From positions 1 through 37,335 of IMG/VR virus record IMGVR_UViG_3300032253_000014: a stretch of DNA of 37,335 bases, one strand, 5' to 3'. The stretch is from a virus. Taxonomy: Duplodnaviria; Caudoviricetes. A program made the position numbers and the translations under genes. The notes beneath the pieces are model-generated. The model searched no databases. It saw nothing but the letters and a program-made list of their open reading frames with translations, and was not told the origin of the DNA. Below, piece after piece: positions 11,488-36,788 of this stretch. Within the stretch, counting starts at the first letter, position 1; each line of letters starts with the position of its first letter.

Positions 11488-11503
11488 ACGATCTCCTTAA
11501 ATA

Positions 11504-11618
11504 GATATCAAAAAGCAATCTATATGATATCTAAAAGATAACAAAAAAACAAGACTAAAAAGCACGGCAGAGGGGAAAAGATATCTAAATGATATATAAA
11601 AGATATCTAATTGTTAGC
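11504..11618. repeat. Two 4x11-bp GATATC-type arrays (parS/operator candidate)
   Basis: Hexamers at 11504, 11515, 11526, 11537 and at 11580, 11591, 11602, 11613, immediately upstream of parA. Confidence 0.8.
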
Positions 11619-11630
11619 TTTTCAGGAAAC

Positions 11631-15351: not shown

Positions 15352-15382
15352 GGTATACTTAAGCTACAACAAGGAGCTTATC

Positions 15383-15508
15383 ATGGAGACCATTATCAAC
15401 CTATGGATATATATCAAAGGTATCTTTGACACGTACAAGCCCAAGCCTAAGCCCGACTATGATGAGATCGAGCGCGGCTTAGGGATCAAGAAAGATCCTA
15501 AAGCTTAA
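15383..15508 (+). CDS. 41-aa peptide with hydrophobic N-terminus, own promoter candidate; not in ORF track
   Basis: TATACT at 15354-15359 and AAGGAG RBS; METIINLWIYIKGIFDTYKPKPKPDYDEIERGLGIKKDPKA. Confidence 0.7.
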   Translation: METIINLWIYIKGIFDTYKPKPKPDYDEIERGLGIKKDPKA

Positions 15509-18500
15509 TAAACTTTTCATTCTTTACAAACTTTTGCACCTTCTTTTTATCCCCAGGCTTTGAGCCGTTGATCTTAAGTTTTGTACGGAGGGTAGCAGGC
15601 AGTTGGCCTTTTATCTCCGTTAGCGCAGTCTGATATTTGCGCGCTGCTGCTGCTCTCTCCGTAGAAGACTTAGACATATTGAACTCTCTCTCATACAACC
15701 TTCTCGCCGTATTCACCCGCTTCTGCCCTTCGGCAACCTTGTCGATATGCTGCAGCTTTCCGATGGAAGCCTGTGAAGCAACATTACCGACCGTCAGCGG
15801 CCTGCCCTGCTTGTCCTGCCCGTTCACAACGGCCTCGATAAGCTTCTGAGGGTAACGCCCCCCTGGTGCTACGATATCCGTGATCCCTTCAACCTCATTG
15901 CCTTTGTTGTCTACCTTCTGTCTCCATACAAGCGGAACAACAGGGAACATCGGCGGGAAGAAATGCTCTGTGATCGCAGCCAAACGCTTCGCCCCCTTCA
16001 CCGCGTTAGAGTCATACTTGCCTATGCCAAGATCCCGGCCTCTGTTATCGCGGCCCTGGACTACGATACCAAAGAAGTTTGCGAACAGCCCCCCGTCCAT
16101 ACCGAGCAGGTACGACAAGGGTGACTCGTTCATAAAGCGCATTGCAGGAACAGCACGGCCCACGTTCAAATAGCCTAGATCCGTCTCATAGAAGTTATCC
16201 AGGGCAAGCGCATTAAACCCGTTGTTCATATACTCAGGCGTTACCTTGTCGCGCTCATCCTGCTCACCCACAACCTTTGAGAGTCCAATAGATCCTGCAG
16301 CTGCATGAAGCATTGCCACCTTGTACGGATGCTTTGCCATGAGCTTTAAGAAGATCGGCGTAGACTTCCAGGTATAGTGCAGGAATGGTGCGAGTCCGGA
16401 ACGGTCCATGAACTTAACCCCGTCCGGCAGCGGTGTCGAGTAATTGACATAAACCTCGTCCACTTCTTTAAAGGCAGCGCGCAGCTCTGCTTCCTCTAAA
16501 GATATCTTATTGATATCCTTTCGATATTTATTAGATATCAATACCTCATTGATATACCCGCCGTCAAACTTCGCTTTGATCTCAGGGTTTTGTTCCAGGA
16601 ACTTAGCAAGCTGCGCCGCCTCTTTGCGCTTCGCATACGCAGCAAGCTTGAAGAAAACGTCCTCGTTCTGATACCAGGTACGCATCTTCTGCCCTGTCTT
16701 AGAGTCCTCCGTCATATAGAGATTCTTGAACAGCGTTATGATCGGGCCTTCATCCTTGATCTCTTTGAAGCCGCCGACCTGCTCAAAATCATCAAGCATA
16801 GAGTCCAGGCCAAAATGCACCGCCTCATCATTAAGCTGCTTTCTGTAGGCAGGATCACGCAAGACTTTATACAGCTGCGTATGATGCCCGTCCAGGTACG
16901 TTACAAACACATTTGACATAGCATTATAGACATGAGTACCCAGGTTCTTAACCGTCATATTCGTCTTGATATGCTGCACCGTGCCAACCCAGGCTTTTAA
17001 GAACTTATCCATTTTGCTTAGATCGCCCGCCATCATCTCAGCCCCGCGCAGATCGTTGAAGACCTGCTCAGGAATGTACTTGCCATTGAGAGATCCCCAC
17101 TTGTTTATCACGCCTAGCTTTGTGTCCGGAACAAGGACGTACCCCTCCGGTGCATCACCCTCACCCTTATAGGCAAGATCCTCGTTGATCTTGTTAAAGA
17201 GCTTCGCCTTGCTCAGTTGGTCCTTCTGTTCCATGATCGTCTTTGCCACGACATAAGCAGCGTCTTCGACCTGGCCCATCTCGATACGCTCTTCCAGGGT
17301 GAGATCCTGTCTAGCGTGCTGCGCCTTGTTTGCCTTAGATCTAAAGATCCTCTGATAAAAAGGATCTTCACTACGGATATGCTCAAAGTAAAAACGCTTC
17401 ACATAATCCTCTTTGGCATACTTAGGATCAAGCGCACCTGCCTCGATCAATGCAGCCGTGTGTGAGTCGATCATCTTTCTAAAATGATTATAGGTATTAT
17501 GCAGCTTAGGGTTAAGCTCTGCAAGATCCATATCACCACCCAGGACACGCACCAGGTTTTGAGACTCTTCTTTGTCGAGCTTGCTCAGGATCTCATGGAT
17601 ATTGATTGCATCGTGTGCGATCGATCCGCGCATATCCGTATACTCGCGCATGATATCCAGGAAATGAGTAGAACGACCGCCGCCTGTAACAAAGTTGTCA
17701 CGCAGCCAACCAAAGGCATCGTTTGCCATTTGATGCGCTGCATTGCTTGCCTCGCGCGGCTGCTTAGGCACGCCGTTCTTGTCAAGATCTTTCATGAAGT
17801 TTGCGATCACATCATACACATCATCCACCACGCGCGCCGGATCGGTCAAGAAGTCCGCTACCTTCTGCGCACCGGGGATCAAGAACGCATTGAGTTTCAC
17901 ATCACCGCTGTTTAGATCTTCCTGGAAACGTACCGCTTTGGCCTCGTCCTTGAAGATAAACCCGCGCACAAACTTCGAGTAGTACCCGCCGTACTTAGTG
18001 ATCTCTCCGCGCAGAGCCTTGAAGTCCTCACCGCTCAAACGATCCGCAGGTTTGATAACCGTCATATCCTCACCCGTCTTCGTGTGCTTCTTCTTAAGCA
18101 CCTCGATAGGCATACCACTTACGACTTTGGATATCTCGGCATCGATCTCTGCAGGATCGCGCGGGATCTCTCTCGCGTCTATACTCATCTCCTGCAGCTC
18201 ATCAAAGAAGTGATTGATATCATCCCCGGCAATGCTGCGCTGCATCTGCTCTGCTCCTGTTTCAAGCAGCTCATCCCCCGGCGTTTTATCCAGGATATAC
18301 ACGGACGTTCTCGCACCTGTGCCGGCACGCTTGAAGGTGACTTCCGGCAGATCGATCTTCTCGCGCAGTACCCACCCCTTATAAGCCTTGTCTTCAAGCA
18401 TCTTTTTAAAGCCTGCTTTATCCATCATGTTATTAGGGGCAAGTGCAACGATACGACCGCCCATATTGGTATGGCCCATTGCCTTAGCTATGTGTTTGAT

Positions 18501-21500
18501 CGCATCGGCAGAGCCTAAGCCATACGGCGGATTCATAACGATCGCGTCATACTTGTTGTGCAGATCAAGATCCAGGAAGTCCATATTATGAACTTTTCCC
18601 TGGACCGCAACAGATAGATCCGAATAGAGATCGCTGCTGCTCTCAACAAAATGATTGACTGTGTTCTGAGGAAACCACTTGCCTATTGCACCGTGTCCGG
18701 CACTCGGCTCTAAGACTCTCTCATTCGCCTGGATATCGGCCCACTCTACCATCTTCACGCCCAAAGGCTCAGGCGTTGCGAAATAGTCCTTGCCTCTGTG
18801 GTTTTGTCTGCCCTTCTTCTGCCCGAAATAAAGCGTCTTTGCATACGTGTACTGATCCGCACCCACCGTGTCACCCTCGGCACGTTTGTCAAAGGCTTTA
18901 CCGCCCTGGCCTGTCAGATCGGCAGCAGCTATCTCTTCCGCGTCCATGTATCCCTGCTTGATCGCAGAGTTAAGCGCACGGCTGTTCTCGCCCAGGGCCA
19001 AGTTCTCCACCGTAGCCACACGCTGATTGATCGCAGATCCAAAGTACCGCTTCTCAAAATTCGTGTGCAGCGTAAGGTACTCAAAGATCGCGTCACTCGT
19101 CTGCCCTGTTCTGAAGATCCGGCCCTCGACCTGGATCATATCGATCGGCTTGATCGGCAGCGTGAGATTTATCATTGCACGCTGCTTGCCGTTGTTATCA
19201 TCATGCAGGGATATCCCCTCTTTGCCCGATTCGTTGAAGACAAAGATATCTACCTTATCCTCGTTGAAGTCTCTCACATACCCGGCTTTGCGATCCTTGT
19301 TTGTCTCTTTCCCGTTGAAGAACACGGCCTGCTCACCAAAGGCATCACGGATAGTCTCTACCGGGTTTTTAAGTTCGCCCAGGTCCAGGTTATACAGATC
19401 AGAGTGTTTGCTTTTAAACTGCTCATACTGCGCGTTGAGCTTTTCTTGTAAGGCAATACCCCGGCGCACGTTATTTTTCCTCGCTTTCTTCACCACCTCG
19501 GCAATATACTTTTCAAGATGGAACGGGTGCTGCGGCGTGTTGTTCACAAAGGTATGATAGACAACCACCTTGCGGCCCAGGGCTAAATGATCCTTGATCC
19601 TGCCTACGGCTTCTTTGGCCTTGATCGATTCCATAAGCGACACCGTATCCATGTAAGACGCACGCATTGCCTGTCTCAGCGTTGTGAGTTCTTTGTCATT
19701 GTTGAGACGTTCAAAACCTTCATCGATCTTCTTTCCGATCTCAGAGCTTACCAGGACAAACGGACGTTGATAGTCTTGATTGACTTCAAGTGTACGTCCG
19801 CTCATTGCCCCGCTGCTCTTTAGCTTCTCCGAAAAGGTACGCTCCATAAGATCCACATTAACCTCTGCGTCCGGAAGCTGCAGCTTGTTGTATTTCATCT
19901 GATAACCAAAGTTCTTAATATAGAAGTCTTGCTCATCGTCTGAGGCGTTCTTCACATAGCCCTTGTATTCATCCTGCGCCCACTTGTTCTCTTTGAAGTT
20001 AAACAGATAATCATCTGCATAGCTCAAAGACTTGTGAGAGGCAAACGGGGATGCAGATAAGAAGACCGTCTTTGTCCGGGCGTTGATCTCCATTGCGCGC
20101 TGCAGCTCTGCATCGTTTATCTCTTTGACTTTCTCAGAGGCGGCTCTGTATGCTTCATCGTTACCGAGTGCATCCTGCTTTGCTTTGATCGCAGCATCTC
20201 TTTGCTCTGCAAACTCTGCACGCGCTACGGCAAGAGCGTGTTGGTAATGCCCTGTAGCCTTTCTAAACCCTTCCAGGTTTGCCGTCTGCGTTCCCTTCTG
20301 ATTTGCCATGATCTTATGCGACTCATCCGCTACGACAAGATCATTCGCTCTCTCCTGCAGAGCCGTGTTCGATCGCATCCCCTCATAGGTCGTGACAACC
20401 ATCTCACCCTCTTTGGGTGCATCCGTTGTCTTCTCCAGGTGACGCAGCTTAAGGCCCAGGATCTTAGCTTCCTTGATCCATACCTTAGCCATTGTGTTTG
20501 TCGGTGCGACAACAACGATATTGTTCTTATCCATACGCGCAAAACGCTTGACGATACCAAGCCCGGTAAAGGTCTTGCCCGTTCCCGTTCCGTTGGTAAA
20601 GAGCATCCCTTTGTGATTGCCCTCGTAAAAACGTGCTTCTGCTTTGATAACGTCCTGGCGTTGCGGCTCTAATAGGAATGGAAGTGTGTCGTGAATGTTT
20701 TGAGGATCATTAAGCTTGAACGGTTTAAGCTCTGCCTCTTTTTGCAGGATCTTCTTTTGTTCTAAACTAAGAGCAGCTTCACCCAGGTCTGCATTGTCGG
20801 ATTGGATTTGTGGCTGTTCAATGTTGCTTTGAGCTGCTGCGTCTCCTTCTCGTCCAGGCTGTACTCCCTCATCATCAAGTCCGCTGCTTCGTCCAGGTCG
20901 TTGATCTGCGGTATCGCTGACAAGATCCCCGCCTGCTGTGTCTGTCTGACGTAGTTCATTATTGCCCTGTTCTCCAAGTAGATCGGCAGTATCGCCTGGT
21001 GCGCCGCGATCACCTTCACCGGAAAGTTTAGCTGCTCCATCATCTGAGCCTGTTGATCCAAGATCTGTGTTATCTCGTCCTCGTCCAAGATCATTAGCTG
21101 CTGCATCACCTTCGTTTCTAGCTGCTGCGACTGCGCTATCTTGTTCCAGGTTTCCTGTGGTAGTTGTGTCATGTGTCGTTTCCTTTGTGGTATCATCAAA
21201 AAATGCAGCTTGTGCTTCGGCTGCGGCCTCCGGATCAAAACGCTCTTGCATCTTCCCGTATGCTTCAAAGTCATAGATATTTTCCGGTGCAGCTTTCAGC
21301 GCAGCGTACTCGGCTCTTAACTCTTCTTCTGTCGGAAGACGATACTCAGGATTATTCTCCATCATATCAAGATCTGTTTTAAGATCTTCTATATCCTGCA
21401 AAGTAGCTTTGCCCTGTTCTATCCGTTTTACCTTACCCTTAGAAAGTTGGAAGTCGTTGCGGTAGTTCCTGGTATACGTTGCGCCGGATACGTCTGTCTC

Positions 21501-23813
21501 ATACCCTGCACCCTTGTTCTCATGCTTCATGAAGCGTTCCGTAGCTACATTCTGTCCGCTTACCTGGTCTTTGGCATTGATCTCACGCGTATAGTTCAGA
21601 GCCTCATCAAAACGCTCATGCTGCTTAAGCACGTTTAACTCGTCTTCTGCCATTGCTTCCATTGCTCTTTTGGCAAGCGGCGTAGGCTCTGCCCCGTTCT
21701 TCGCCTCTGTCACCTCACGCACGATATCCTCGTAACGCGTTGTCTTGTTCACCAAGCCCTTAGCCCAGGCAGGAACTTTCAGAACTGTCTCACTCGGTAC
21801 GTCAAAGAGCTGCTGATCCTTGCCGAACAGATCGCCCTGCTGCGTTGGTGTACGTGTCTCTTCGACCGTAAGCTTTTCGTGGGCCAGGTTAAAGCTCTGA
21901 TCCGGTTTGATATCTTCTTGATTGCTTTTAGATATCTTTTCTATATCTTTTATCGGCTTTAATTCAGAAGGTCTAGGCGTTTCCCACTCTCCGTTCATGC
22001 GATAAACCTGCACCGATTCCAGGCCCGTTGTGTTCTTCTTCTGCAGAGCTATTAATACAGGCTCATCTTCATACATGGCCCACTTCCCAAGATGGTTTTG
22101 TTTGATATCTGCCGTGAGATCCTTTGCGCCCTTGATATCTTTTGGCTTATGATACAGATTGTTTTCATTCACCCCTTCTTGAAGAAGTTGATAGTTTTTA
22201 AGCTCATCTACATAGATTTTCACCATATAGTTATCTGCTCCGTCATGCTCCTTGTATAGATCATGCAGGCGTTGAGCTATACTGATATTCTCTGCAAGTG
22301 TAATGCCTCTCTCTTTTGCAGCCTTTGACTCATCAAATATAGGCTGCAGCTCTTCCGCTTTAAACCGCTGATACTCTTTCACGCTGTCGATCGCTTCAAC
22401 TGCTTCTACCTGGATTTTTTCTTGATCCACAAATGACTCTCTGTTAAGCTGCAGCTTCTCCGTTGCGTATTCCGTATATACTTCGATATCTCTTGATTCA
22501 TAAGCAGCCGTTGCAACCTGGGCGTGTTCGTCCGTTGCACCGTGTTTGAGCATAGAGGCGTAAAACTGCTCTTTGGTCTTAAGGGGATTGTTGATCGAGT
22601 TGATAAGAGCCTGCTGCATATTCATACCGCTGAGTCTCGGTGACATAGGCGCACCGTCATTGACAACGTGTGTGATCTGCAGAGCTTCGGGTGTCGGCTT
22701 GATCTGCTCATTGATAGCCGCTTCGATCATGATAGGATCTGCACCGGAGTCTTGCATCTGCTGCCCCATCACCTTAACCTGCTGATCCAAGGTCATAGCG
22801 TTCTGCTCTTCTTTCATGATCGTCTCTGCAAAATACTCGTTTGCTTTGCGCTGCACGATCTCCGCTTCCAGGACAACCGGATCGAACTTGTCGAAATCTA
22901 TCTCTATGCTGCCGTCTTCGTTCTTCGTGAAGCCCGGTGTCTTCTCCGGATCAAACATCACCTCGCCCTCTACAGGCTGATCCTTGATCCCCAGGCCGTC
23001 CTCGATATCAGAGTAGACATTTTCATTGCTCTCTTGCTTTTTGTTCCCCGGCTTCTTGCCTCTTGCCACATCAACAACACGACCGCCCAGGTGCATCGTT
23101 CCACCCATAACCGCGCCTGCTCCCGTTCCCAGGATCGCATCGACTGCCATATCAACGCCCGTCTTGTCGGTACGCGGTGCATCAAAGGCAACGGCCTGCG
23201 CACCGTTAGGAAGCGCACCCCATAAGATCGCCTTGCCGATTGTCTTGCCTGCAGCCAATAGAGAAAGAGGATCTACCATCTCGCCCACAGTCTCGGCAAG
23301 CTGCCACTCTTCCGGGTGCATGACGGTATCTTTAAGTGTGCTTGCTCCCGCTGCCAACTTCTCTTTGAAGCCCTCAGCTTTAGCGTTCTCTGCATTCATT
23401 GCCGCGACCTCTGCCTCACGCTCAGGATCTCGGCCCTGTGCTTTGTGGTGTTCGGTTACGTTGTCAAGTTTCTGCAGGATATTCGTATAGTATTCTTGTG
23501 ACTGCTGCTTACGACCGCCATCATCCGCGAGATCGATCAAGCCATTCACCCCGGATGAAGCTAAGTTCATATAGTTCATTGAGGTCTTACCGATACCTCT
23601 AAACACATTACCTGCAGTATCCGCAACGGCATTTCCGCTTTGCCCTAGCATCCAGTCCGGCATCGATCCAAGGGATATTTTATCGTTGGTTTGTGGTGTC
23701 TGTTGTGGGGAATTTCGTCTCTGTTTTGCGATAGCGATTATATCGGTATCACTCATTCCCTGCTCTTTGAGGGCATCGAGTTCGTCACCGAGGATCTGTC
23801 TTACTGTTGGCAT
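15498..23813 (-). CDS. Giant polyvalent virion/ejection protein with SF2 helicase and N6-adenine methyltransferase (DarB-like)
   Basis: GTGTGKT, DESH, SASP and QVEGRIFR helicase motifs; YFATP, VLEPSAGHG and NPPY MTase motifs; Gly/Ala hydrophobic N-terminal region. Start revised to ATG 23813 after GAGG. Confidence 0.88.
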   Translation of the reverse strand: MPTVRQILGDELDALKEQGMSDTDIIAIAKQRRNSPQQTPQTNDKISLGSMPDWMLGQSGNAVADTAGNVFRGIGKTSMNYMNLASSGVNGLIDLADDGGRKQQSQEYYTNILQKLDNVTEHHKAQGRDPEREAEVAAMNAENAKAEGFKEKLAAGASTLKDTVMHPEEWQLAETVGEMVDPLSLLAAGKTIGKAILWGALPNGAQAVAFDAPRTDKTGVDMAVDAILGTGAGAVMGGTMHLGGRVVDVARGKKPGNKKQESNENVYSDIEDGLGIKDQPVEGEVMFDPEKTPGFTKNEDGSIEIDFDKFDPVVLEAEIVQRKANEYFAETIMKEEQNAMTLDQQVKVMGQQMQDSGADPIMIEAAINEQIKPTPEALQITHVVNDGAPMSPRLSGMNMQQALINSINNPLKTKEQFYASMLKHGATDEHAQVATAAYESRDIEVYTEYATEKLQLNRESFVDQEKIQVEAVEAIDSVKEYQRFKAEELQPIFDESKAAKERGITLAENISIAQRLHDLYKEHDGADNYMVKIYVDELKNYQLLQEGVNENNLYHKPKDIKGAKDLTADIKQNHLGKWAMYEDEPVLIALQKKNTTGLESVQVYRMNGEWETPRPSELKPIKDIEKISKSNQEDIKPDQSFNLAHEKLTVEETRTPTQQGDLFGKDQQLFDVPSETVLKVPAWAKGLVNKTTRYEDIVREVTEAKNGAEPTPLAKRAMEAMAEDELNVLKQHERFDEALNYTREINAKDQVSGQNVATERFMKHENKGAGYETDVSGATYTRNYRNDFQLSKGKVKRIEQGKATLQDIEDLKTDLDMMENNPEYRLPTEEELRAEYAALKAAPENIYDFEAYGKMQERFDPEAAAEAQAAFFDDTTKETTHDTTTTGNLEQDSAVAAARNEGDAAANDLGRGRDNTDLGSTGSDDGAAKLSGEGDRGAPGDTADLLGEQGNNELRQTDTAGGDLVSDTADQRPGRSSGLDDEGVQPGREGDAAAQSNIEQPQIQSDNADLGEAALSLEQKKILQKEAELKPFKLNDPQNIHDTLPFLLEPQRQDVIKAEARFYEGNHKGMLFTNGTGTGKTFTGLGIVKRFARMDKNNIVVVAPTNTMAKVWIKEAKILGLKLRHLEKTTDAPKEGEMVVTTYEGMRSNTALQERANDLVVADESHKIMANQKGTQTANLEGFRKATGHYQHALAVARAEFAEQRDAAIKAKQDALGNDEAYRAASEKVKEINDAELQRAMEINARTKTVFLSASPFASHKSLSYADDYLFNFKENKWAQDEYKGYVKNASDDEQDFYIKNFGYQMKYNKLQLPDAEVNVDLMERTFSEKLKSSGAMSGRTLEVNQDYQRPFVLVSSEIGKKIDEGFERLNNDKELTTLRQAMRASYMDTVSLMESIKAKEAVGRIKDHLALGRKVVVYHTFVNNTPQHPFHLEKYIAEVVKKARKNNVRRGIALQEKLNAQYEQFKSKHSDLYNLDLGELKNPVETIRDAFGEQAVFFNGKETNKDRKAGYVRDFNEDKVDIFVFNESGKEGISLHDDNNGKQRAMINLTLPIKPIDMIQVEGRIFRTGQTSDAIFEYLTLHTNFEKRYFGSAINQRVATVENLALGENSRALNSAIKQGYMDAEEIAAADLTGQGGKAFDKRAEGDTVGADQYTYAKTLYFGQKKGRQNHRGKDYFATPEPLGVKMVEWADIQANERVLEPSAGHGAIGKWFPQNTVNHFVESSSDLYSDLSVAVQGKVHNMDFLDLDLHNKYDAIVMNPPYGLGSADAIKHIAKAMGHTNMGGRIVALAPNNMMDKAGFKKMLEDKAYKGWVLREKIDLPEVTFKRAGTGARTSVYILDKTPGDELLETGAEQMQRSIAGDDINHFFDELQEMSIDAREIPRDPAEIDAEISKVVSGMPIEVLKKKHTKTGEDMTVIKPADRLSGEDFKALRGEITKYGGYYSKFVRGFIFKDEAKAVRFQEDLNSGDVKLNAFLIPGAQKVADFLTDPARVVDDVYDVIANFMKDLDKNGVPKQPREASNAAHQMANDAFGWLRDNFVTGGGRSTHFLDIMREYTDMRGSIAHDAINIHEILSKLDKEESQNLVRVLGGDMDLAELNPKLHNTYNHFRKMIDSHTAALIEAGALDPKYAKEDYVKRFYFEHIRSEDPFYQRIFRSKANKAQHARQDLTLEERIEMGQVEDAAYVVAKTIMEQKDQLSKAKLFNKINEDLAYKGEGDAPEGYVLVPDTKLGVINKWGSLNGKYIPEQVFNDLRGAEMMAGDLSKMDKFLKAWVGTVQHIKTNMTVKNLGTHVYNAMSNVFVTYLDGHHTQLYKVLRDPAYRKQLNDEAVHFGLDSMLDDFEQVGGFKEIKDEGPIITLFKNLYMTEDSKTGQKMRTWYQNEDVFFKLAAYAKRKEAAQLAKFLEQNPEIKAKFDGGYINEVLISNKYRKDINKISLEEAELRAAFKEVDEVYVNYSTPLPDGVKFMDRSGLAPFLHYTWKSTPIFLKLMAKHPYKVAMLHAAAGSIGLSKVVGEQDERDKVTPEYMNNGFNALALDNFYETDLGYLNVGRAVPAMRFMNESPLSYLLGMDGGLFANFFGIVVQGRDNRGRDLGIGKYDSNAVKGAKRLAAITEHFFPPMFPVVPLVWRQKVDNKGNEVEGITDIVAPGGRYPQKLIEAVVNGQDKQGRPLTVGNVASQASIGKLQHIDKVAEGQKRVNTARRLYEREFNMSKSSTERAAAARKYQTALTEIKGQLPATLRTKLKINGSKPGDKKKVQKFVKNEKFIKL
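16501..16539. repeat. 4x11-bp GATATC array inside the giant ORF
   Basis: gatatc 16501, gatatc 16512, gatatt 16523, gatatc 16534. Confidence 0.7.
20762..21172 (-). CDS. Nested out-of-frame gene (136 aa) within the giant ORF
   Basis: AAAGGA-8nt-ATG; helical protein MTQLPQETWNKIAQSQQLETK...; the host frame over this span is low-complexity linker. Confidence 0.7.
   Translation of the reverse strand: MTQLPQETWNKIAQSQQLETKVMQQLMILDEDEITQILDQQAQMMEQLNFPVKVIAAHQAILPIYLENRAIMNYVRQTQQAGILSAIPQINDLDEAADLMMREYSLDEKETQQLKATLNSHKSNPTMQTWVKLLLV
21909..21947. repeat. 4x11-bp GATATC array inside the giant ORF
   Basis: gatatc 21909, gattgc 21920, gatatc 21931, tatatc 21942. Confidence 0.7.
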
Positions 23814-23838: not shown

Positions 23839-23887
23839 AGTGTGCCTAAAATGGGGGATTTTTCAGAGGATTTTAGTGTTTACGCTA
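23839..23887 (-). promoter_or_regulatory. Putative activator-dependent late promoter
   Basis: TAGCGT-AAA-CACTAA, 28 nt, then CACACT. Confidence 0.6.
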
Positions 23888-24577
23888 CTCGATTTCGAGA
23901 TCGTCTATCTTGCCTCTTGCTTTGAGTCTATCCTTCGCCATGTTGTAGGCGGCATTGCTGATATACTCGATCCCGCCCTTCTCGATAAACCCGTTTAGTT
24001 CTGCGATCATGTTGCGCAGCTCACCGCCGTTAGCATTAAGATCTCTGATCTCCGTCTCGCGCATATACCCGTCCGGTGCATCTGTCTTAGAAGAGCCTTT
24101 GCCCTTTGGCTGCCAATAGTCCTTGCCTTTGACTCCGGTATTAACGGTCTTGTTGTCCTCTGTAACCAGGTACATAAACCCGTCTTCGCCCAGGAACTTA
24201 GCCTTGTATCCGGGGGCTTCCGTTTTTTCCGGCTTGCCAAGATCGACCAGGCCTGCATTGGCCTTTGGATTTGCTTGCTTAAATGCTGTCGTGGCCACCG
24301 GGTTAAGTGCAGAGTTCTTTGTTGCCGTAGCAACAATAAGATCATTCTTTTCTTGTTCAGCCTTTGCCTCTTTGCGCTTCGCTTCCTTCTCTGCTTTGTC
24401 AAGCAGCTCTGCGTCAAGCTTTACTTTGTTATCGTACATATTCTCTTTGTTCGTCTGCTCCCCGTAGTTCATGAGCGTCTTTCCCGCGTTGGCGATCCCT
24501 CTTCCTGCACTTCCCATCATAGCCGCTGCAGCTGCGCCGCCTGGACTGAGATTGATTAAGCCTCGTTTGTATCTCAT
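23885..24577 (-). CDS. Probable internal virion/ejection protein
   Basis: Gly/Ala-rich N-terminus plus coiled coil; directly upstream of the giant protein. Confidence 0.6.
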   Translation of the reverse strand: MRYKRGLINLSPGGAAAAAMMGSAGRGIANAGKTLMNYGEQTNKENMYDNKVKLDAELLDKAEKEAKRKEAKAEQEKNDLIVATATKNSALNPVATTAFKQANPKANAGLVDLGKPEKTEAPGYKAKFLGEDGFMYLVTEDNKTVNTGVKGKDYWQPKGKGSSKTDAPDGYMRETEIRDLNANGGELRNMIAELNGFIEKGGIEYISNAAYNMAKDRLKARGKIDDLEIE

Positions 24578-24586
24578 ACCATCCCC

Positions 24587-24823
24587 CTACAATTTCACAA
24601 GAGGACCGCCGAAAGCTGCGCTGACGGCTGCCTTAGACTTATTGTTATCCTCTTCGTCTTTAAGGATCTGCGACTTGTTGAAGTCAAATGCGTCCTGCTG
24701 CTGCCCTAGCAGCTTCTTTGCGTATCTGTTCTGCATAATACCGCTGTAGATACTGCCGCCTGCACCGAGTATGCTGCCAAGCGCGCTGATCCCTTTTGCA
24801 TTGTTGGTTAAAAAATCAAACAT
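24587..24823 (-). CDS. Small ejection/pilot-like protein
   Basis: GISALGSILGAGGSIYSG glycine-rich helix plus Q-rich coil; AAGGA RBS. Confidence 0.6.
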   Translation of the reverse strand: MFDFLTNNAKGISALGSILGAGGSIYSGIMQNRYAKKLLGQQQDAFDFNKSQILKDEEDNNKSKAAVSAAFGGPLVKL

Positions 24824-24841: not shown

Positions 24842-24891
24842 ATTGTAGTTAAAAAGATCCATGATCTTTAATTCTTTTAGTGTTTATGCTA
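24842..24891 (-). promoter_or_regulatory. Putative activator-dependent late promoter
   Basis: TAGCAT-AAA-CACTAA, 29 nt, then TACAAT. Confidence 0.65.
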
Positions 24892-26499
24892 CAAAACTTC
24901 AAGTGAAGCAAGCGGATTGTTCATGTGGTAGTACGCCTCATCCACATAATCCCCGTCAAACCCGTACTCTTCTTCCTCAAATACAAGCTCTGTAGCATCA
25001 TACTGCTCCGTTATATCTTTGGCCTGCGTAGGGCCTGCACCTGGAGCGTCCGGTGTCATTATGACCGCAGTTGCGATCTGCGCAAACTCCATAGCGATAT
25101 CCGTCCAATCCATCATATACAGATCCGCAGCCATATTCTCTATTGCCACCTCCATAATAACGTCCTGTGAGGACGCAGCTACCCCTGCACCTTCTGCATA
25201 CATATCTGCAGCATTAAGATACTCGCTTGCCCCGTAGAGCATGAGAGAGGTCCGTATCTTCCGGTACACCTTCTTGAAATCATCTATGAAGTTCTGATCG
25301 ATATCAAGGGCATCCATTGCATAGATCATTGTCAAAATGTAAGGGTTTATAATCGGGATGCTGTCTATAAAGTCAATTACTTTGGAGACAAACTTTACAA
25401 ACCCTCCCAGGATCTTACCCACGAAGGTATCCCAAAACCCGCTTGTATGCTGTTCCACCCCAAGATTGATCGTCTGCTGCACCAGGGTTATAGCCTCCAA
25501 GGGCGTGAGTGCATCCCAATACGCCTCATCGATGTATAAGGAACTCCAATACCCGTCTGAATGGTAGTATGTTCCCTCTATTGTAGGGTCTACATTATAG
25601 AACGATCCGCTAGATCCTTCCGTCCAATTATTGACATAGTTCCATATCACGCCTGCAGTAGTGTTCCAATCGTATTCATTGCGCGATCTGTAACGAGTTC
25701 CGTACCGTGAGGGGGGATTTGTGAAATAGGTATTATCATCATCCCCAAGATAAATGTTCGCGTATACCTCTGCGTCAAGCACGGACCGGTCTGAAAGATA
25801 CGACACCGAAACACTTCCAAGATCGATTGATACCGTAACGGTATACTCATAATCATCCCCGTAGATATCGCGTGAACTCACAAGAAGGGGTGACGTACTT
25901 GTGATAGTGATCGTGTCCGCATGGTTCTCGAAGATCTGCGTACTGTGATAGAGATGCCCGATCGTTCGGTTTAGCTCTTCCGTTAGCAGGCCGCCATATA
26001 CCATCTCAATATCAACGGAATTTGTAGCTGCTATCTTAAGAGAAGGAAGGGGTGCGGGGGCAGCAGGTGCAGGATCATCTTTTGGTACGTTGATTACAAA
26101 AGTCTTTGATATTGTAGCCGTACTCCCCAGGGGAACGGCAGGAAAAAGGTCATCTCTGAAATGCGCCCAAAGTGCATCGAGCGTATAGAGTCTTTTTGCA
26201 ACGAGGTTTATATAAGTAGAGATATCTCCCTGGTAATATACGGCTGCAACTTCCGCTTTGGCTTCATCATCCATACCGCAAAGATCCCCTAGCCTGTTTG
26301 CCAGGTTTCCTGAAAAATCAGCCACATTGACACGCCCGCCGAAATGCGGTTTTCCATTTAAAACAGGAAGCCCTGTGCAGGCCACATACGCAGCCTTAAA
26401 TTCTCGCTTCCATTTGCGCATCCCCATAGATCCGGCAAGGATATAACGCTTATACGATCCCGCTACATCACCGTTCTTGATCCTGAGCGCAGCTGCCAT
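24889..26499 (-). CDS. Virion structural (tail/ejection) protein
   Basis: 536 aa in the structural operon, with a late hydrophobic segment and acidic C-terminus. Confidence 0.55.
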   Translation of the reverse strand: MAAALRIKNGDVAGSYKRYILAGSMGMRKWKREFKAAYVACTGLPVLNGKPHFGGRVNVADFSGNLANRLGDLCGMDDEAKAEVAAVYYQGDISTYINLVAKRLYTLDALWAHFRDDLFPAVPLGSTATISKTFVINVPKDDPAPAAPAPLPSLKIAATNSVDIEMVYGGLLTEELNRTIGHLYHSTQIFENHADTITITSTSPLLVSSRDIYGDDYEYTVTVSIDLGSVSVSYLSDRSVLDAEVYANIYLGDDDNTYFTNPPSRYGTRYRSRNEYDWNTTAGVIWNYVNNWTEGSSGSFYNVDPTIEGTYYHSDGYWSSLYIDEAYWDALTPLEAITLVQQTINLGVEQHTSGFWDTFVGKILGGFVKFVSKVIDFIDSIPIINPYILTMIYAMDALDIDQNFIDDFKKVYRKIRTSLMLYGASEYLNAADMYAEGAGVAASSQDVIMEVAIENMAADLYMMDWTDIAMEFAQIATAVIMTPDAPGAGPTQAKDITEQYDATELVFEEEEYGFDGDYVDEAYYHMNNPLASLEVL

Positions 26500-35169: not shown

Positions 35170-35392
35170 GTTTAATAGGTTATATATAAGGTTAATAAGA
35201 GTTAGAGCCTGTGAATAAGTGCCGTTTTCTTCGCTGTGCAGGTCGATACAGCATTTTTATTCTCATCAAATGAGTGAGTATTCTCATCAAACGAGTGAGT
35301 ATTCTCAGCAGATGAGTGAGTATTCTCATCAAATGAGTGAGTATTCTTTGTATTCTCATCAAATGAGTGAGTATTTTTCATCAAATGAGTGA
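35170..35392. other. Iteron-type plasmid replication origin
   Basis: AT-rich GTTA repeats at 35170-35205, DnaA box TTATTCACA (minus, 35210-35218), iterons, adjacent rep gene. Confidence 0.85.
35258..35392. repeat. Six 21-bp iterons TATTCTCATCAAATGAGTGAG
   Basis: Units start at 35258, 35279, 35300, 35321, 35351 and 35372 (degenerate), with a 9-bp insert at 35342. Confidence 0.92.
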
Positions 35393-36139
35393 CTACTTCT
35401 TCACATCAAGTATTTTAAATGTGAAGAGCTTATCTTTCTTGTGCGTTTCATATTCAAATGCGATCAGAGCATTGACTTTAGGTGCTATGCGTTTTATAGT
35501 TTGTGCTATATTTGAAAATGCGGATTCTTTCATATTGAACAAAACCTTTGCCCGATCATACGACATACTAAATTCCGGGTTGGTACTCTTCTGCCGATCT
35601 AAGATCTCATACAGTCGTTTAGCGTGCCTGCTCTTAAGAGAGGAAACCGTTTGTATCTCGATATTGGTATAGTTCCCGACCTTTGCATTGAACTGCCGCG
35701 TAGATACCTGCAAAAACCATTCGTTGTATTGGATCTCAAAGCCCTGCTCCCTGCCGTCGATTAATGATCCTTCCTCTAGCCAGGTGACATTATCTATAAT
35801 AGCAACGGTTTTAGCCTTTACCCGCTTGCCGTCTATATCAGTAAAGTTTCTGATCGTTGCAGAAGTATCGCGGATCTTCTTAAGTGACTCATAAATCTTT
35901 TGATTTGCATTAACGCCAAACTTCCCAAGCTCTTTCAAGCGTGAAGCAGGGATGATAACTTTTCGCTCTGTGATCTTCTCATAGTTGAACAGGGTGACTT
36001 TCTGCCCGTCTAGTCTGTGTTCATTCTGCATGATGTGCAGCAGAGCATTGAGCAGATCATGATCCACCTCGCTAAATGCTTTTTGAAACTCTGCCAGGAT
36101 CAGGGGATTTTGTTTCATTACTATCGGTGCTTTAATCAT
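35393..36139 (-). CDS. Plasmid replication initiator, Rep_3 family
   Basis: KQNPLILA...FSEVDHDLL N-terminus, NYTNIEI...LKSRHAKRLYEIL signature; abuts the iterons. Start is 36139 or 36145. Confidence 0.85.
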   Translation of the reverse strand: MIKAPIVMKQNPLILAEFQKAFSEVDHDLLNALLHIMQNEHRLDGQKVTLFNYEKITERKVIIPASRLKELGKFGVNANQKIYESLKKIRDTSATIRNFTDIDGKRVKAKTVAIIDNVTWLEEGSLIDGREQGFEIQYNEWFLQVSTRQFNAKVGNYTNIEIQTVSSLKSRHAKRLYEILDRQKSTNPEFSMSYDRAKVLFNMKESAFSNIAQTIKRIAPKVNALIAFEYETHKKDKLFTFKILDVKK

Positions 36140-36146
36140 ACACATA

Positions 36147-36788
36147 TTATACCACCTCAAACTCATAAACAAATACATACGGGTTACTGTTCCAGTCGTA
36201 TGGTGCTTTGTATGGTAGGTTGTTCCAAATTTCTTTTTCAAAACAATCAACAGCGTTTAAATATCCTGTATTTCCATCTGTTGTATAAGCAAAGTTTTGG
36301 GTAGGCATTGGTGGATATTCTCCGCCTCTACTTCCCCAACCCATAACTTCTTTTTTATAGATTCCCTCTTTAATACAATCCTCTTCCGATATATCCTGTA
36401 AGCGTTCTACTTTTATGTTGGTGATTTTCAGGAAGATACGGGCTTCTTTTTCTGTCATTTTAGAAGATGGCGACCAGTATGCACAAAAACCAGACCACCC
36501 GCTTTCATAATCTGCTCTATATACAACTTCATTCACCTCTTCGTTTAAACAAAACTCTTCCTGAACAAATACTGTTTCACCTACTTTGTATTTTGGCTTT
36601 ATAAAAATGGTTTCATCTGCATCGTAATCATCAAATCTTGCCTCAATGACACTATAATTATCGTCTAGTGCTGTTCCAAAACTATCTATGTTAAAATATT
36701 TTGGTAGTTTTATCGGTCTACGTGTCATAGTCTTGCTGCCGTTTAATATAGCTTCTATGCCTTGTTGGTTGAATTTAATTGAGTTCAT
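36147..36788 (-). CDS. ASCH/PUA-like domain protein (copy 2, complete)
   Basis: AILNGSKTMTRR, YKVGETVFVQE, RIFLKITNIKVERLQDISEED..KEG and NPYVFVYEF motifs. Start revised to 36788. Confidence 0.85.
   Translation of the reverse strand: MNSIKFNQQGIEAILNGSKTMTRRPIKLPKYFNIDSFGTALDDNYSVIEARFDDYDADETIFIKPKYKVGETVFVQEEFCLNEEVNEVVYRADYESGWSGFCAYWSPSSKMTEKEARIFLKITNIKVERLQDISEEDCIKEGIYKKEVMGWGSRGGEYPPMPTQNFAYTTDGNTGYLNAVDCFEKEIWNNLPYKAPYDWNSNPYVFVYEFEVV
36598..36788. repeat. Direct repeat of 1-191
   Basis: First 100 nt exact; mismatches at 101, 139, 144 and 150. Confidence 0.97.

Follow-up and report, generated by a model that had tools for sequence, protein, structure and literature searches.

A 41-aa peptide encoded directly beside a putative giant ejection protein in a 37.3-kb virus record (the window, meaning the whole stretch of DNA analysed here) carries near its C-terminus a copy of a short motif of that giant protein. 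We propose, with a probability of roughly 0.4, that the peptide of a resident phage-plasmid competes for the docking partner of this motif at the inner membrane and so would block the entry of kindred phages. A decoy role is plausible on sequence grounds. It is doubtful that the 41-residue, non-transmembrane peptide amounts to a minimal superinfection-exclusion device that would copy a clade-specific docking motif and jam a cytoplasmic step of DNA entry.

The predicted phage-plasmid and its putative ejection cassette

Family searches assigned a terminase, an SU10-type capsid and portal, a primase, a CI-like repressor and ParA to the window, which also encodes Rep3 with 21-bp iterons and a 188-aa tyrosine recombinase. 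Virion genes thus lie beside plasmid replicon and partition genes, the combination that characterizes phage-plasmids, and the short tyrosine-type enzyme is the sole recombinase; from this gene content the window is predicted to be a temperate short-tailed phage-plasmid. The iterons (35250-35400) adjoin Rep3 and, together with ParA and the short recombinase, are marks of such an element. The nearest matches of the window SSB are Campylobacterota records, mostly Sulfurimonadaceae, and the nearest named homolog of the giant protein comes from a Sulfurimonas MAG; the capsid protein had no match in phage or plasmid record collections. An 11-bp AT-rich unit centred on GATATC(T) occurs in four dispersed clusters (227-277, 11501-11627, 16498-16537 and 21909-21960) located upstream of parA, beyond the terminase gene and, for two of them, within the giant ORF, an arrangement which we take to resemble the dispersed plasmid centromere of N15. 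A direct repeat of 191 nt, 98% identical, is found at 1-191 and 36598-36788, the second copy stopping short of the very end of the record; it may stem from a partial duplication, or from an assembly error where the circle closes.

The giant gene and the features of the putative ejection cassette discussed below are as follows.

15498..23813, minus strand: giant 2771-aa protein, with SF2 helicase (ResIII and strawberry-notch C-terminal Pfam hits) and methyltransferase cargo
22974..23015, minus strand: motif site, giant residues 267-280 (YSDIEDGLGIKDQP), a short predicted helix (268-273) in a low-confidence linker
23079..23267, minus strand: giant residues 183-245, Gly/Ala-rich hydrophobic helices before the motif, with 19-residue Kyte-Doolittle peaks of 1.25 and 1.19
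23885..24577, minus strand: 230-aa gene in the position of a putative gp20-like periplasmic ejection protein; its counterparts precede the giant gene in relatives
24587..24823, minus strand: 78-aa gene in the position of a putative gp7-like ejection protein; phrog_6508, with homologs in 9 related loci

The 78-, 230- and 2771-aa genes follow the tail genes in series, and their order is identical in related prophages. From this synteny we infer that the giant gene is the last of an ejection cassette and encodes a large polyvalent protein; virion proteins of this kind with DarB-like methylase-helicase cargo are predicted to be injected, according to the available part of their description (PMC5512222). 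The ESM Atlas leads from the 78-aa protein to P22 gp7 and T7 gp14 at 0.79, which is below the reliability mark of the tool, and the 230-aa protein had no family hit in Pfam and PHROG searches. A 29-nt element, 79% identical, stands upstream of the giant gene (23871-23899) and of the 78-aa gene (24875-24903) and is a candidate for a shared regulatory signal of the cassette.

The giant protein has a helical N-terminal part followed by the helicase-methyltransferase cargo. In an AlphaFold2 model of the N-terminal region, built with 45 sequences, residues 179-264 have a pLDDT under 50 and residues 312-499 form a well-folded helical domain, with the motif linker between them. Residues 183-245 are candidate inner-membrane segments, and the motif region would have the anatomy of a short docking motif. 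The N-terminus gave no fold match at E<=0.001 against PDB and BFVD (the best VIA Z was 7.8, on a helical hairpin), and a search with the giant protein against the sequences of solved structures found no match. At residue 658 (about 21825-21842, minus strand) the giant protein carries QQGDLF, where its relatives have QQSALF or EQNALF; this resembles a sliding-clamp-binding motif. In five related prophages two tightly coupled ORFs stand in place of a single giant ORF (L113:9083, L125:7955, L126:7610, L127:7490 and L129:9668), the split point preceding the conserved C-terminal part and each second ORF having its own RBS.

The 41-aa gene and its product

The peptide (METIINLWIYIKGIFDTYKPKPKPDYDEIERGLGIKKDPKA) and its expression signals are arranged as follows.

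15354..15359, plus strand: -10-like hexamer TATACT of a candidate Campylobacterota sigma-70 promoter, from the sequence
15371..15376, plus strand: Shine-Dalgarno AAGGAG, 6 nt before the ATG, from the sequence
15383..15508, plus strand: gene of the 41-aa peptide, which runs towards the giant gene and shares 11 nt (15498-15508) with its stop-codon end
15386..15436, plus strand: residues 2-18, predicted amphipathic aromatic helix (AlphaFold2 helix 2-18, pLDDT 77-84)
15437..15454, plus strand: KPKPKP spacer, residues 19-24, from the sequence; coil in the AlphaFold2 model
15455..15499, plus strand: motif copy DYDEIERGLGIKKDP, residues 25-39, with a predicted helix at 26-32 (AlphaFold2)

The -10 box, the AAGGAG and the convergence on the giant gene that the original prediction had described are all present at these places. 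It had also called the ORF unannotated, which proved wrong, the protein being already called as a gene in public collections. Campylobacterota sigma-70 promoters are reported, in the accessible part of one study, to have an extended -10 box with the consensus TGxTATAAT and to do without a -35 box (PMC3656092). TATACT is preceded by a G at -2 and an A-run, the T of the TG being missing; a two-hexamer sigma-70 scan did not list it because such a scan requires the -35 box that Campylobacterota promoters lack. With G.TAnAnT found 0.86 times per kb of the window, the box is no more than suggestive.

The evidence that the ORF is a gene comes from a relative in another study, a 521-bp contig of run X2, which aligns with the window from 15346 on and whose upstream DNA is unrelated, so that the module from 15346 on travels with the 3' end of the giant gene while the DNA upstream differs. 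Between 15346 and 15530 there are 13 differences, and the 10 of them that are listed all fall inside the 41-aa ORF; eight of these ten are synonymous third-position changes and two are nonsynonymous (T3I and I4F), in agreement with the database protein P0005, a variant of the peptide. This pattern indicates purifying selection (P=6e-5, or 6e-4 with a 4:1 transition bias), and it leads us to conclude that the 41-aa ORF at 15383-15508 is a real gene. As to whether the peptide might be untranslated or absent in relatives, which had been named as grounds for abandoning the idea, the X2 relative retains it with eight synonymous against two nonsynonymous changes. The antisense 26-aa ORF at 15364-15444 was rejected, its start codon being lost and five of its residues changed in the same relative.

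Both amino-acid changes of the X2 relative fall in helix 2-18, and the protein sequence of the motif copy is unchanged. The helix has a hydrophobic moment of up to 0.5 and a maximal 19-residue Kyte-Doolittle mean of 0.39 (0.57 in the variant P0005). The original prediction of a hydrophobic, membrane-associated N-terminus therefore has to be revised, in that the best window of 0.39 is not that of a transmembrane segment and the N-terminus is predicted to be an amphipathic helix; being too short and too polar to span the membrane, it is likely a membrane-surface anchor, as far as the model can tell. No export signal was evident on inspection of the peptide, and no Pfam or PHROG family was hit by it. 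Its N-terminal helix (15383-15430) is, by eye, loosely like the N-termini of the 78-aa family, for example ETNWLDTLKGIG in L114:11496-11780.

Searches for homologs of the peptide returned only itself and one 92%-identical variant, with none in 353 genomes and none in further protein and sequence searches, so that conservation of the peptide tail rests on that single 92%-identical relative. Relatives of the giant were present in 11 of 353, 19 of 401, 4 of 61 and 4 of 18 genomes (overlapping sets), and all of them are distant (<=247 bits vs 874). In viral, metagenome and genome collections the giant C-terminus had no close relative other than the window's own record (L013), scans with the capsid and the recombinase found no further locus, and 12 helicase-domain loci (38-41% relatives) contained no homolog of the peptide. 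In the region of the giant motif, the X2 relative has no cover at 22684-23017 and that of X3, at 80% likeness, skips 22870-23131. Among 24 more distant prophage regions there was no such peptide and no convincing mimic in a test that would miss motifs of 6-7 residues, and their giants are without the motif type at the site. What separates the giant from the recombinase in the syntenic L113 is an unrelated 86-aa ORF, and the slot beside the giant is therefore variable. Hits resembling INLW obtained by tblastn in L125 and L126 were discarded as out-of-frame pieces of the giant gene.

Two other small ORFs were noted in other loci. A 36-aa hydrophobic ORF ending in HKPA (L137:5474-5614) converges on and overlaps the end of the giant in a distant prophage, and no motif match to its own giant was seen. 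The N-terminal portion of a 1028-aa protein recurs in the neighbouring 31-aa ORF at the edge of its locus (L004:22349-22441; E about 5e-8), and this ORF may be a truncated paralog.

Motif likeness between the peptide and the giant protein

The peptide segment YDEIERGLGIK (15458-15490) and the giant segment YSDIEDGLGIK (23015-22983, residues 267-277) are identical at 8 of 11 positions. The coordinates and the identity of this match, as first reported, are all correct, and it extends to 9 of 14 with giant residues 267-280 (BLASTP E=0.002 for that single pair). The codon differences had been described as synonymous, which holds for two of the eight identical residues; the other six use the same codon (P=0.039 from genome codon usage). 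As for the context of the giant copy, a hydrophobic Gly/Ala region does precede the motif as claimed, and the KKPGNKK linker, 7 residues before it, does not recur in this form in relatives. Both copies are predicted helices that follow a hydrophobic stretch and a Lys-rich spacer. The similarity was also considered at the DNA level and rejected as evidence, a 20/24 near-repeat being one of 42 such pairs in the window.

One objection is that the match is a coincidence. The gene would be an ordinary accessory gene of small size, occupying a variable slot that separates the early from the late operons, and its tail would resemble the giant linker only in the way that short acidic amphipathic helices capped by Leu-Gly resemble one another. 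Several control comparisons bear on this. Of 2000 shuffled peptides, 11 attained the score against the giant and 5 attained 8/11 identity; with the rest of the proteome as target, 4 of 500 shuffles attained the score. Among 1326 real gene pairs there is a second 8/11 window (terminase versus giant), and 484 pairs of a small ORF and a large protein gave 2 matches at E<0.005 vs 2.4 expected, with no excess of own-phage matches; both results suit the chance reading. In an empirical null built from the 24 related prophage regions, with the first 600 aa of the giant compared, the 11-mer score of 41 for the peptide and the giant is the best among 619 own-phage small-ORF/giant pairs (the next is 37) and is reached by 8 of 16,288 cross-phage pairs and, for linkers only, by none of 5974; by long local alignment the pair ranks third of the 619. 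With 39 small ORFs in the window, the resulting expectation that any one of them scores as high against the first 600 aa is 0.016-0.044 per genome, and several times that against the whole 2771-aa giant, which again leaves room for coincidence. The raw match alone is modest and barely above chance, and a scan of many genomes collects such coincidences.

The conservation of the site among the giants argues the other way. Homologs of the N-terminal 500 aa numbered 80, and 71 of them span the motif region. The nearest giants retain 3-5 of the 11 motif residues, and a reading of the motif as not conserved on this identity was dropped because the core pattern [YF]xx[AI]xxxLG[VIL] is present at the site in all five of them (P0002, P0003, P0004, P0006 and P0011). 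The broader form [YF]xx[AILVM]xxxLG[VILM] was found elsewhere in the first 600 aa in 1 of 76 other giants. These five giants also have the top C-terminal scores (903, 899, 874, 633 and 476 bits; the next is 250), and P0011 retains the motif though a quick tree of 45 of the 81 proteins places its N-terminal domain elsewhere. Large indels occur on both sides of the motif. A motif unconserved in the giant had been given as a reason to discard the original prediction; the core is kept throughout the five-member clade.

The peptide was then compared with the versions of the motif in four of these relatives (P0003, P0004, P0006 and P0011), where it takes the form [YF]EAAxxDLG[VI]. A search with the 12-mer of the peptide placed the homologous site at ranks 1/2572, 7/2434, 1/2176 and 1/1750, vs ranks 1, 51, 14 and 18 for the giant's own 12-mer, so the peptide suits the relatives' versions better than the window giant's own copy does. 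Of 5000 random 8/11 derivatives, 45 equalled the peptide by rank and 121 by summed score. When 313,850 windows were scored with an ungapped profile of the four relatives, the peptide came among the best 14 and ahead of the giant's own copy. An HMM of the four alone had both the peptide and the window's giant outside its top 8, a result in favour of coincidence; with P0002 added, the peptide came second (E=0.012). The four-sequence HMM was topped by a 74-aa ORF of L143, which was set aside as a Cys-rich protein from a phage with no such motif in its giant. The tail [DE]x?P is common to the peptide and four of the five giants, and the extended pattern, drawn post hoc, occurs in 3 of 1273 ORFs; the core pattern itself is found at 13 unrelated places among the same 1273 ORFs. 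All of these conservation tests were devised after the match had been seen and are not independent of it.

Weighing both sides, we consider the match between the peptide and the giant to be probably not a coincidence. Chance alone would have to account for a match that hits a clade-conserved linker motif and retains its whole core, the flanking D and the terminal DP, that just 45 of 5000 random derivatives equal, and that involves a gene directly adjoining the giant gene with the same codon at six of eight residues. The chance reading, to which the unrelated genes occupying the slot in relatives and the scattered occurrences of the core pattern also belong, is in our judgement rather unlikely; it would leave an ordinary new small gene and a clade-specific short motif in giant ejection proteins.

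Proposed entry block and known exclusion systems

We propose that the peptide would be made in the carrier state from its putative own promoter and would sit on the cytoplasmic face of the inner membrane via its predicted amphipathic helix. During infection by a kindred phage, giant residues 183-245 would enter the inner membrane and leave the motif beside it, most simply on the cytoplasmic side, which is both the site of helicase-methylase action and the place of a peptide with no evident export signal. There the giant motif would dock on a host factor or on another subunit of the conduit. The peptide, holding the copied motif at a similar distance from the membrane, would occupy this docking partner, and DNA entry by kindred phages would be blocked in a cell carrying the predicted phage-plasmid. 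The original decoy idea is supported in part, by the purifying selection on the gene and the clade-wide conservation of the motif core; a transmembrane anchor is not supported.

The same motif evidence would also fit a virion-assembly signal. If the motif served capsid loading, an oligomer contact or a portal contact, a cytoplasmic peptide could compete during assembly, either tuning the loading in its own lytic cycle or spoiling the assembly of superinfecting kin. The peptide is likely cytoplasmic, since it has neither a transmembrane helix nor an evident export signal, and the cytoplasm is where assembly occurs; its gene could also be taken to close a rightward early operon. However, a membrane-surface helix and a spacer are unnecessary for such a role, the giant motif follows hydrophobic segments and is not at a terminus, and a constitutive inhibitor would presumably harm the phage's own induction unless it were diluted out. 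We regard an assembly role as improbable.

It is also conceivable that both copies bind one host protein with no exclusion resulting, for example if the motif tethered the injected helicase-methylase to a host membrane or replication factor that the peptide modulates in carriers, or that the tail is a captured piece of the giant gene with an unrelated job. The clamp-binding-like QQGDLF at residue 658 would suggest that the giant reaches host proteins through short motifs, and the codon identity hints at capture by duplication. Yet no search pointed to any host target, and the conservation of the tail comes from the one 92%-identical relative; these possibilities appear distinctly improbable.

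By analogy, the entry-blocking peptide proposed here would work like SieA of phage P22. SieA is an integral inner-membrane protein whose gene lies between genes 16 and 9 and which blocks the conduit formed by the ejection proteins, according to the accessible part of the SieA paper (PMC10883804). The two share a prophage gene placed directly after the last (here putative) ejection gene, with a putative promoter of its own, and an action at the inner membrane against kin, which in our case is proposed. In contrast to the peptide, SieA is met by escape mutations in the C-terminal parts of gp16 and gp20, and the available part of its description mentions no copied motif (PMC10883804). The peptide is 41 aa long, not transmembrane and without a family hit; lacking transmembrane helices and any such hit, it is probably not a member of the SieA family.

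Other membrane-associated phage proteins that block DNA injection include HK97 gp15, the TP-J34 and Tuc2009 proteins and T4 Imm, as far as the accessible parts of two accounts go (PMC10883804, PMC11436027). HK97 gp15 and the TP-J34 protein resemble the proposed peptide in the block of injection, and escape from them is via changes in the tape measure or the tail. HK97, TP-J34 and Tuc2009 differ in having long non-contractile tails, and the parts of these accounts available describe no sequence copy of a target protein. No sequence relationship of the peptide to HK97 gp15, the TP-J34 and Tuc2009 proteins or T4 Imm was found here. The DarB-like large polyvalent proteins match the giant in the SF2 helicase and methyltransferase encoded in a phage late region, but this concept covers the giant alone, and a neighbouring peptide is absent from the accessible part of that description (PMC5512222). 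DicB of the Qin cryptic prophage is, like the peptide, a small prophage-encoded protein, and it gives protection against phages by inhibiting inner-membrane receptor proteins; unlike what is proposed here, no mimicry of a virion protein is described for it in the part available (PMC6832061). The literature searched contained no description of sequence mimicry of a phage's own virion protein as an exclusion mechanism.

The proposal addresses the question of how the ejection proteins of podoviruses engage the inner membrane and which partner completes the DNA conduit; the SieA paper, in its accessible part, leaves the interaction of SieA with the ejection proteins unexplained (PMC10883804). If it is correct, a natural copy of one 14-residue motif would point to an essential contact and could serve as bait for the partner, and virion-protein sequence mimicry would join the exclusion mechanisms. 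Campylobacterota phage-plasmids would in that case fall into exclusion groups according to the motif type of their giants ([YF]xxAxxxLGV in the clade, ILxNxLL in others).

Linkers of other types do occupy the motif site outside the clade: an ILxNxLL-like linker is found in 11 of 45 aligned giants (for example P0008, P0015 and P0028), and residues 277-288 of P0021 contain a linker of the type VADMENDFGF. Within the clade the central cargo is swapped or missing, the giants sharing their N- and C-terminal parts, with P0006 and P0011 lacking the central helicase-methylase of P0002-P0004.
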